Source: a virus (lineage: Duplodnaviria > Heunggongvirae > Uroviricota > Caudoviricetes). Taken from it: a stretch of 43,737 nt of DNA. Each line of letters starts with the position of its first letter. Position 1 is the first letter of the stretch. The notes below the pieces were generated by a model. The model was not told the DNA's origin. It did no database searches and saw nothing but the letters and a program-made list of their open reading frames with translations. The position numbers and the translations under genes were made by a program. Where the stretch lies: positions 64,001 through 107,737 of IMG/VR virus record IMGVR_UViG_3300005758_000044; one strand, 5' to 3'. This document shows positions 3,406-4,470 of this stretch, in pieces.

Positions 3406-3533
3406 TTGACAAGATCGAGTTTTTGATGTAGAGTAGTAAGACAATAAAGTTCGTATATTTCGATAACGGCTTGAAACCGAGAAGAAGAAAGTTTCAAAAA
3501 GTTGTTGACGAAACCGGAAAACGGTGGTAAGAT
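3406..3533 (+). promoter_or_regulatory. Tandem sigma70-like promoters upstream of the large ncRNA
   Basis: TTGACA-17-TAGAGT (3406-3434) and TTGACG-17-TAAGAT (3505-3533). Confidence 0.75.
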
Positions 3534-3539
3534 ATACGA

Positions 3540-4470
3540 ACAATAAGAATTCGATGGAGTTGAGACTGTAGCTCAACTTAAAAGAGTGACTAGGAACCGA
3601 ATCCATCAAATCGTTCTTTGTAAGAAACAAGATTTGGGGTGCTTGAACTCCATATAAGATAGTGAGTAGTAATACTCATGAAAGAGGTAATCCCCTAACG
3701 GATCCTCGCCTTCGCAAGAAGGACAGTCAAGCAACTGGCAATGTCTGTGACTTTCATCCAAAAGGTGGAAGTATATCCGACGCTGGATCGACAAATGATA
3801 ACTGAGGGTAACACTGTAAGTTGTCTACTAACGGTACCGCCGAGCACTGTTGATTCCTTAAGTGGAACAGCCACGAATAAGACACAAGCCAAAGATACGG
3901 GTGTGAGACCGCAATCAAATGCTCGTATGTAGATTGATAGAAAGTGGGCAGGGTAACCAGAACACAATCTTGAAAATCGGTGAAGTATCCGCAAGAGAAA
4001 CACATGTGGTGTGTCGCATATTGTATCCCAAAAGGGTATGAAACGACAAACAACGCACATCACGGTTAGGTGCATAATTAGCTCAATGGTAGAGCAATTC
4101 CTTTGTACGGAATATGTTATTGGTTCAAATCCAGTATTATATTAAAAACGCAAAGTCGTTGTTTGTCTAAGATGAAAGTGACTTAACTCTGTGACCGAAA
4201 GGTAACACAGACAACGAAACATCCGCAAGATGCTAGTTGTTAATTGGAGTCTGAACGGAGTCCGCAAGACTTAACTGCTCGCAAGGCAGACGGTTGGATG
4301 AAGGTTGAATAGTCTTAGGTTAAGGTTGAAAAGCCACAACCCTAAAAAGGCAGTCATGTTGAATACAGTTATAGACGCAAGTCGTAACCGTGGATATGTT
4401 GGGAAGCCGATCCGCAAGATTGGTATAATCTAACTAAAGGTCAACAGATAAAGCGGTAATCTCACGCCAA
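3540..4470 (+). ncRNA. GOLLD-like giant ornate ncRNA
   Basis: ~930 nt with no credible ORF, many GCAA/GAAA tetraloop hairpins, 3' end AAAGCGGTAATCTCACGC, inside a phage tRNA array, internal tRNA. Confidence 0.75.
4072..4143 (+). tRNA. tRNA-Thr(TGT) embedded in the GOLLD-like RNA; no encoded CCA
   Basis: GCTC/GAGC D-arm, ATTCC-TTTGTAC-GGAAT, ATTGG-TTCAAAT-CCAGT; C2.A71 mismatch. Confidence 0.75.

Follow-up and report, generated by a model that had tools for sequence, protein, structure and literature searches.

GOLLD RNAs are already known to occur in phage tRNA arrays, to carry tRNAs in their linker and to assemble into cages. Two of them have been solved, namely env-38 (833 nt, a 14-mer; PDB 9MEE) and the GOLLD of Streptococcus agalactiae (700 nt, a 12-mer) (PMC12286853, PMC12990946). 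The linker of env-38 faces the cage interior, and GOLLD reportedly binds ribosomes in pull-downs (PMC12286853). The two halves of the Streptococcus GOLLD are separate 3D domains, the 3' domain alone forming a different oligomer, and storage of tRNAs by GOLLD ("inhibited storage") has been proposed in print as well (PMC12990946). A Mycobacterium tRNA-Phe located in GOLLD J13/15 is cited in the latter paper. In Mycobacterium aubagnense, the GOLLD was seen on Northern blots and its internal pseudo-tRNA was not (PMC6582537).

The locus described here lies in a window of 43,737 nt (the whole stretch of DNA that was analysed) from an IMG/VR record of 107.7 kb. This record is estimated to be 31% complete; it encodes a tmRNA and baseplate proteins and gives 39 matches to tRNA in Rfam. 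A first-pass annotation had read the locus as a GOLLD-like RNA in a phage tRNA region, with a tRNA in its variable linker. These points were borne out by a covariance search with the Rfam GOLLD model (RF02032), which matched positions 4006-4468 of the plus strand over the whole model (model positions 1-416) at 212.3 bits (E 8.7e-59), the gathering score being 150 bits; the tRNA-like element falls within this match, and a jumbo-phage tRNA array surrounds the locus. A scan of the genome contigs for this GOLLD returned one locus, and a BLAST search of the RNA against cultured phages gave tRNA-length matches only. The RNA and its leader comprise the following features:

3406..3434, plus strand: upstream promoter P1, sigma70-type, TTGACA-17-TAGAGT (predicted; consensus scan, 10/12)
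3505..3533, plus strand: second promoter P2, TTGACG-17-TAAGAT, with an extended -10 TG and an upstream A-tract (predicted; consensus scan)
3553..3607, plus strand: optional leader hairpin region in a boxB-like position (fold prediction), present in the window and in locus L250, absent in L153
3613..3623, plus strand: boxA-like word GTTCTTTGTAA, ~10 nt before the GOLLD body
3632..4005, plus strand: GOLLD 5' domain, outside the Rfam model, recognised by homologs and compensatory pairs
4006..4468, plus strand: GOLLD 3' domain with linker (RF02032)
~4048-4055 with ~4157-4164, plus strand: covarying long-range helix whose strands flank the linker
4072..4143, plus strand: tRNA-shaped domain with intact D, anticodon, and T arms, an acceptor stub of five A-U pairs, no CCA, and the loop UUUGUAC

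The conserved body of the GOLLD spans 3632-4468 (837 nt), its start being set by alignment to relatives. The ~930 nt given earlier instead cover everything between the second promoter and the 3' end; the corresponding segment (3540-4470, 931 nt) folded better than all 20 of its shuffled versions (z -5.05). The 5' domain is 71-89% identical to the 5' domains of loci L250, L153/L135, L134, and L142, and can be aligned over its full length with the GOLLD of Mesorhizobium phage Cp1R7A-A1, compensatory pairs being seen. In an alignment of 11 GOLLD homologs including Cp1R7A-A1, compensatory changes that altered both sides occurred at 125 of the 160 consensus pairs, and the consensus fold contained the D, anticodon, and T arms but not the acceptor stem. 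The long-range helix (alignment columns 504-511 with 620-627), which joins the two sides of the linker, had both sides changed in four to six of the 11 sequences at each of its seven pairs. With a 3' domain above the gathering score, a structured 5' domain, a length within ~700-850 nt, and a phage tRNA-array setting, the locus is, on sequence grounds, a complete GOLLD gene of full length, carried by an uncultured jumbo phage. To judge from the family, the RNA encoded at 3632-4468 probably forms an RNA-only cage that encloses the linker.

The leader had been called rRNA-like, and this description was confirmed by the tandem predicted promoters and a positionally conserved boxA-like word. A site similar to P1 is present in L250 and L153, and P2 is the best-conserved leader block in these two loci; the predicted transcription start lies near 3540. 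The P2 spacer contains an inverted repeat (ACCG...CGGT), kept in L250 and L153, which is a possible operator. GTTCTTTGTAA has two mismatches to the published boxA consensus GYTCTTTAANA (PMC5725501) and is found at the same place in L250, L153, and L134. Such a word alone is unremarkable, as 12 of them occur in the contig; it precedes 17 of the 49 GOLLD loci that bear an insert and 64 of the 71 that lack one, and none of the reverse-strand or downstream controls. Some ROOL sequences of the published alignment start with the same word. No boxA-like word was seen in the GC-rich GOLLD leaders of phages phiCbK, Cp1R7A-A1, and vB_EliS-L02. The GOLLD leader of the window shares with an rrn leader two promoters ~100 bp apart, an optional hairpin, and a boxA-like word before a long untranslated RNA, but differs in that no boxC was identified and in the two mismatches of the boxA-like word. 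Precedents for boxA outside rRNA operons are the early boxA of phage T7 (PMC3709561) and CRISPR arrays (PMC12691694), and the word in the GOLLD leader may likewise recruit Nus factors.

The cloverleaf at 4072-4143 is real, as the first-pass annotation held, being called Thr(UGU) by ARAGORN and scoring 61 bits with the Rfam tRNA model. At the top of its acceptor stem, G1.U72 is followed by the C2xA71 mismatch noted earlier, and U73 is followed by AAAA, so that no CCA is encoded, in contrast to the other tRNA genes of the phage. In isolation, the insert could still pair five acceptor positions plus the G.U. A predicted competing fold in which the T arm is extended (-14.3 kcal/mol) has a more favourable energy than this AU-rich cloverleaf (-10.8 kcal/mol). 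Besides the insert, three stand-alone threonine tRNA genes are present:

2454-2527: tRNA-Thr(GGU)
8523-8597, plus strand: tRNA-Thr(CGU), read by hand and missed by both ARAGORN and Rfam
G000:C1:57953-58042, plus strand: tRNA-Thr(UGU) with an encoded CCA, on the same contig, 6 kb upstream of the window

The first two had been correctly listed. The insert had also been described as the only Thr(UGU) in the window, which is correct but a window-edge effect, because of the gene at C1:57953-58042, and the insert therefore fills no gap in the tRNA set of the phage. Bacterial threonine determinants include G1-C72 and C2-G71 (PMC9976931); both are present in all three stand-alone genes and missing from the insert. 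Similarly, the acceptor stub of the insert folds at -0.6 kcal/mol, versus -9.6 to -12.2 kcal/mol for the three genes. Among the features of a functional tRNA-Thr, the cloverleaf was thus found in the insert, and the acceptor determinants, a stable 7-bp stem, and a conserved G35-U36 anticodon were not. The proposal that a threonine tRNA supplies a missing isoacceptor here is not supported, given the Thr(UGU) gene on the contig, the lost determinants, and an anticodon that is not conserved in the nearest relatives.

Several other elements of the array were recorded. The variable arm of the Thr(UGU) gene at C1:57953-58042 is long and resembles that of class II tRNAs, which is unusual in a threonine tRNA. 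An intact tRNA with a CUA anticodon and CCA (3308-3383, plus strand) overlaps the end of an ORF (3095-3322) and is a candidate amber suppressor; TAG terminates 22 long ORFs in the contig, and crude ORF totals are not diagnostic of amber recoding. Glycosyltransferases, an FkbM methyltransferase, and a nucleotide-sugar epimerase (1394-1981, 4585-5280, 10628-11560, and 21065-22360) are interleaved with the tRNA genes, and a sub-threshold match to wcaG RNA (RF01761, 35 bits; gathering score 42) lies at 6599-6705 (plus strand). At ~7220-7420 (plus strand), a promoter precedes a ~45-nt motif whose two complementary blocks may form a pseudoknot; a boxA-like word and then a tRNA-Met come next, and the ~45-nt motif recurs upstream of the GOLLD in L134 (L134:2050-2110).

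The closest GOLLD loci (L250, L153/L135, L134, L142, and L209) are 72-87% identical to that of the window, L250 being the closest (87%). Their insert loops read UGU in L250, AUC in L209, AUU in L142, and UAU in L134, and the loop of L153 has 8 nt. The L209 insert is nearly identical to that of the window in all arms other than the anticodon arm, and the L134 insert has lost the acceptor 3' strand and kept the three arms. In the L250 insert, the elbow contact is doubly changed (G18A with U55G), and this elbow switch also marks several stand-alone tRNAs of the window phage. tRNAs with an A18-G55 type elbow (8523-8597, 2534-2608, and 6859-6941, plus strand) are scored poorly or missed by ARAGORN and Rfam. 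No stand-alone Thr(UGU) was found in the contigs of four relatives, an uninformative result, as these are 11-28% complete and the pattern used would miss variants.

To place the insert in its family, pattern scans of viral and metagenome contigs yielded 91 distinct inserts that occupy the same place in GOLLD, and 248 stand-alone tRNAs of the same loci, parsed identically, served as the control. The parser seeks maximal pairing of the D, anticodon, and lower acceptor stems, acceptor pairs 1-2 lying outside its score, and related sequences occur in the insert set, so that the counts are not independent events. Mean pairing of the 91 inserts was 3.96 of 4 in the D stem, 4.99 of 5 in the anticodon stem, and 4.89 of 5 in the T stem, equal to or better than in the stand-alone tRNAs; conservation of the T loop in this set is circular, because a T-loop pattern had been used to find its members. 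Of the acceptor stem, pairs 1, 2, and 3 were formed in 44, 43, and 53% of the inserts, respectively, versus 90-96% of the controls. Pairs 1-72 and 2-71 were at the level expected from base composition (0.45 versus 0.44 and 0.44 versus 0.41, respectively), whereas pairs 5-7 were above it (0.90-0.96 versus 0.45-0.49). The T-acceptor stack is shortened to ~9-10 pairs in most insert homologs, and the spacing from the T stem to the next GOLLD motif ranges from 5 to 31 nt. A CCA was encoded by 3 of the 91 inserts (3%) versus 193 of the 248 controls (78%); the three inserts concerned (L150, L158, and L178) are the only ones keeping NCCA at positions 73-76 and may be recent captures or relics.

The anticodon loop drifts too. 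The 78 seven-base insert loops displayed 27 anticodons, and the canonical Y32-U33-R37 loop occurred in 49% of the inserts versus 87% of the controls. Among 22 disjoint close pairs, per-site divergence was 0.38 in the anticodon and 0.41 at acceptor positions 1-2, and 0.12 in the D loop, 0.15 at positions 33/37/38, and 0.11 in the GOLLD flank. The D-loop GG, U33, and A37 are kept, and the three stems are 96-100% paired across many compensatory changes. Three pairs of loci (L160/L182, L147/L244, and L138/L159) combine differing cloverleaf arms with GOLLD flanks that are 96-100% identical, suggesting recombination of inserts between alleles. As the first insert set had been selected on its T loop, the search was repeated on the GOLLD motif alone, which returned 39 clade members; 25 contained a parsed cloverleaf (none with CCA), five had variant T loops, and nine lacked the domain. 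In 76 GOLLDs of another clade, the tRNA-shaped domain was almost always absent. Paired arms, an acceptor top at chance level, a drifting anticodon, and a patchy presence together indicate that the insert is, as far as comparative data go, an optional, clade-specific tRNA-shaped domain under selection for shape and not for amino-acid identity.

A scheme that would account for these data, and that is held to be fairly probable, starts with synthesis of the GOLLD by the host RNA polymerase in an rRNA-type complex and ends with a cage in which the cloverleaf is kept as an uncharged, tRNA-shaped linker domain. Transcription would most likely start from the tandem promoters, and the boxA-like word would recruit the host Nus (rRNA-type) elongation complex, shielding the long untranslated RNA from Rho and aiding its folding; the 837-nt body would then fold into the cage. 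The cloverleaf probably derives from a tRNA that came to lie in the linker within a single GOLLD clade. It would have lost the top of the acceptor stem, CCA, and a fixed anticodon, features needed by synthetases, by EF-Tu, and by the RNase P ruler, and kept the L-shape, i.e. the elbow, the three arms, and the U33/A37 loop, which can be read regardless of identity. Since the features for charging and for RNase P are lost and the L-shape is kept, the insert most likely stays covalently in the GOLLD, uncharged. Whether the tRNA is excised or displayed had been left undecided by the first-pass annotation; the comparative data agree better with retention than with release of an excised tRNA. The three homologs with NCCA, the dispensability of the domain, the more stable alternative fold, and the UGU shared with L250 count against retention. 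A retained insert could act as a handle for a partner that recognises the shape of a tRNA irrespective of its identity. Within this reading, the ribosome is a tentative first guess for the partner, because GOLLD has been reported to bind ribosomes in pull-downs (PMC12286853). A bolder and rather doubtful extension is that the clade has domesticated a tRNA as a codon-blind, uncharged mimic, 10-14 tethered L-shapes per cage docking on ribosomes or on tRNA-reading defence enzymes.

Among the other explanations, a processing signal deserves the most attention, albeit as an unlikely one. RNase P of the host or the phage, or a 3' nuclease, would cut the linker to give GOLLD halves or an altered cage size, the released piece not being a working tRNA. 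The elbow, which is the part read by RNase P, is conserved in the inserts, non-tRNA mimics are cleaved by this enzyme (PMC4919913), and the separate 3D domains of GOLLD, with the different oligomer formed by the Streptococcus 3' domain (PMC12990946), would suit such a cut. In addition, the window contains a candidate for the enzyme:

~14875-15190, plus strand: RNase P RNA-like candidate, of which only the two P4-like end motifs (14913 and 15160, able to pair) are seen

However, RNase P acts as a fixed-length ruler on the T-acceptor stack (PMC4919913), to which the short stack of the inserts, devoid of CCA, and their variable spacing to the GOLLD motif hardly conform. The candidate itself found no support in Rfam, as RF00010 and RF00011 (RNase P RNA) gave no match on the contig or on 14875-15190, even at E 10; four P4-like blocks were not enough for any Rfam model, and a phage RNase P is a candidate by its motifs only. 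Cleavage apart, the tRNA shapes could absorb host enzymes, the 10-14 copies per cage acting as decoys for anticodon nucleases or tRNA-sensing defence, with the loop tracking the host nuclease. The tRNA loops of Lys(UUU), Asn(GUU), and Arg(UCU) are common nuclease targets; several frequent insert loops equal these real loops, and arms look shuffled between near-identical GOLLD flanks. Yet 9 of 49 distinct insert loops matched real tRNA loops, versus 7.9 +/- 2.1 after column shuffling (P 0.38), the anticodon does not evolve more rapidly than the unpaired acceptor sites, and the linker faces the cage interior (PMC12286853), which makes a decoy improbable. Mimicry of real isoacceptor loops was rejected as not exceeding the shuffle.

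Storage of a functional tRNA-Thr(UGU), the GOLLD being a precursor from which the tRNA is cut out, given its CCA by a host enzyme, and charged, would agree with the published storage idea (PMC12990946). The insert scores above many stand-alone phage tRNAs, it shares its UGU with L250, and ACA is the commonest threonine codon of the phage (237/508); no CCA-adding enzyme was found on the contig. Nevertheless, G1.U72 and C2xA71 abolish the threonine determinants, the loop ends in AC, whereas 49 of 51 stand-alone UGU loops end in AA, and the tRNA would be redundant with C1:57953-58042 and would carry an unconserved anticodon. The insert is also closer to the Pro, Asn, and Val tRNAs of the phage (43-44 of 58 positions matching) than to its Thr tRNAs (36 and 29), a ranking by which descent from the latter was rejected. 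Storage of a chargeable tRNA is consequently the least credible of the explanations considered. Hardly more credible is a neutral relic or folding filler, i.e. a decaying tRNA without a partner, merely tolerated as a compact linker. Loss of the domain in 9 of 39 clade members, partial remnants, and an insert sequence that diverges ~3x faster than the flank would fit decay, but the compensated stems, the conserved D-loop GG, U33, and A37, and the double change at the elbow contact in L250 argue against it. An uncharged domain kept within the GOLLD is thus the preferred reading.

The truncated cloverleaf and the clade signature also occur in the cultured phages phiCbK of Caulobacter (JX163858.1), Cp1R7A-A1 of Mesorhizobium (MT188704.1), and vB_EliS-L02 of Erythrobacter (OL955261.1), whose GOLLDs are all within the published GOLLD alignment and whose inserts have a short acceptor stub and no CCA. 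In GenBank, the insert of phiCbK is labelled tRNA-Gly(UCC) and that of Cp1R7A-A1 tRNA-Leu, whereas that of vB_EliS-L02 is unannotated. Calling such inserts Thr, Gly, Leu, Lys, etc. is a recurring annotation error that inflates phage tRNA counts. In Mycobacterium phage Aziz (L253), tandem tRNA fragments with T loops lie near an annotated tRNA-Asn (L253:140-520), and the GOLLD linker holds a reduced T-arm remnant. The present analysis adds figures for the decay of the insert and phiCbK as a cultured test system. A codon-blind mimic, if true, would offer a first handle on the function of GOLLD, and the idea is genetically testable in phiCbK.

Compared with the solved GOLLDs, that of the window is alike in its full-model 3' domain, its length of 837 nt, its setting in a phage tRNA array, and its variable interdomain linker. 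The linker of env-38 is disordered in the map, whereas that of the window holds a tRNA-shaped domain. The Mycobacterium tRNA-Phe, the pseudo-tRNA of M. aubagnense, and Fig. 4C of Kretsch et al. represent the same linker position and the same idea as the window insert. No statement of the acceptor-truncated, anticodon-drifting pattern or of a boxA leader in GOLLD was found in an incomplete literature search, and either may be in print. Published models draw the linker tRNA as cargo for storage or release. In this clade, by contrast, what charging requires has decayed, and selection appears to act on the shape alone, so that the question is less whether a tRNA is released than which partner recognises a tRNA shape within the cage. 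In the literature covered, linker tRNAs are described as tRNAs that are 'sometimes present', whereas the clade of the window possesses a conserved, acceptor-truncated domain with a drifting anticodon.
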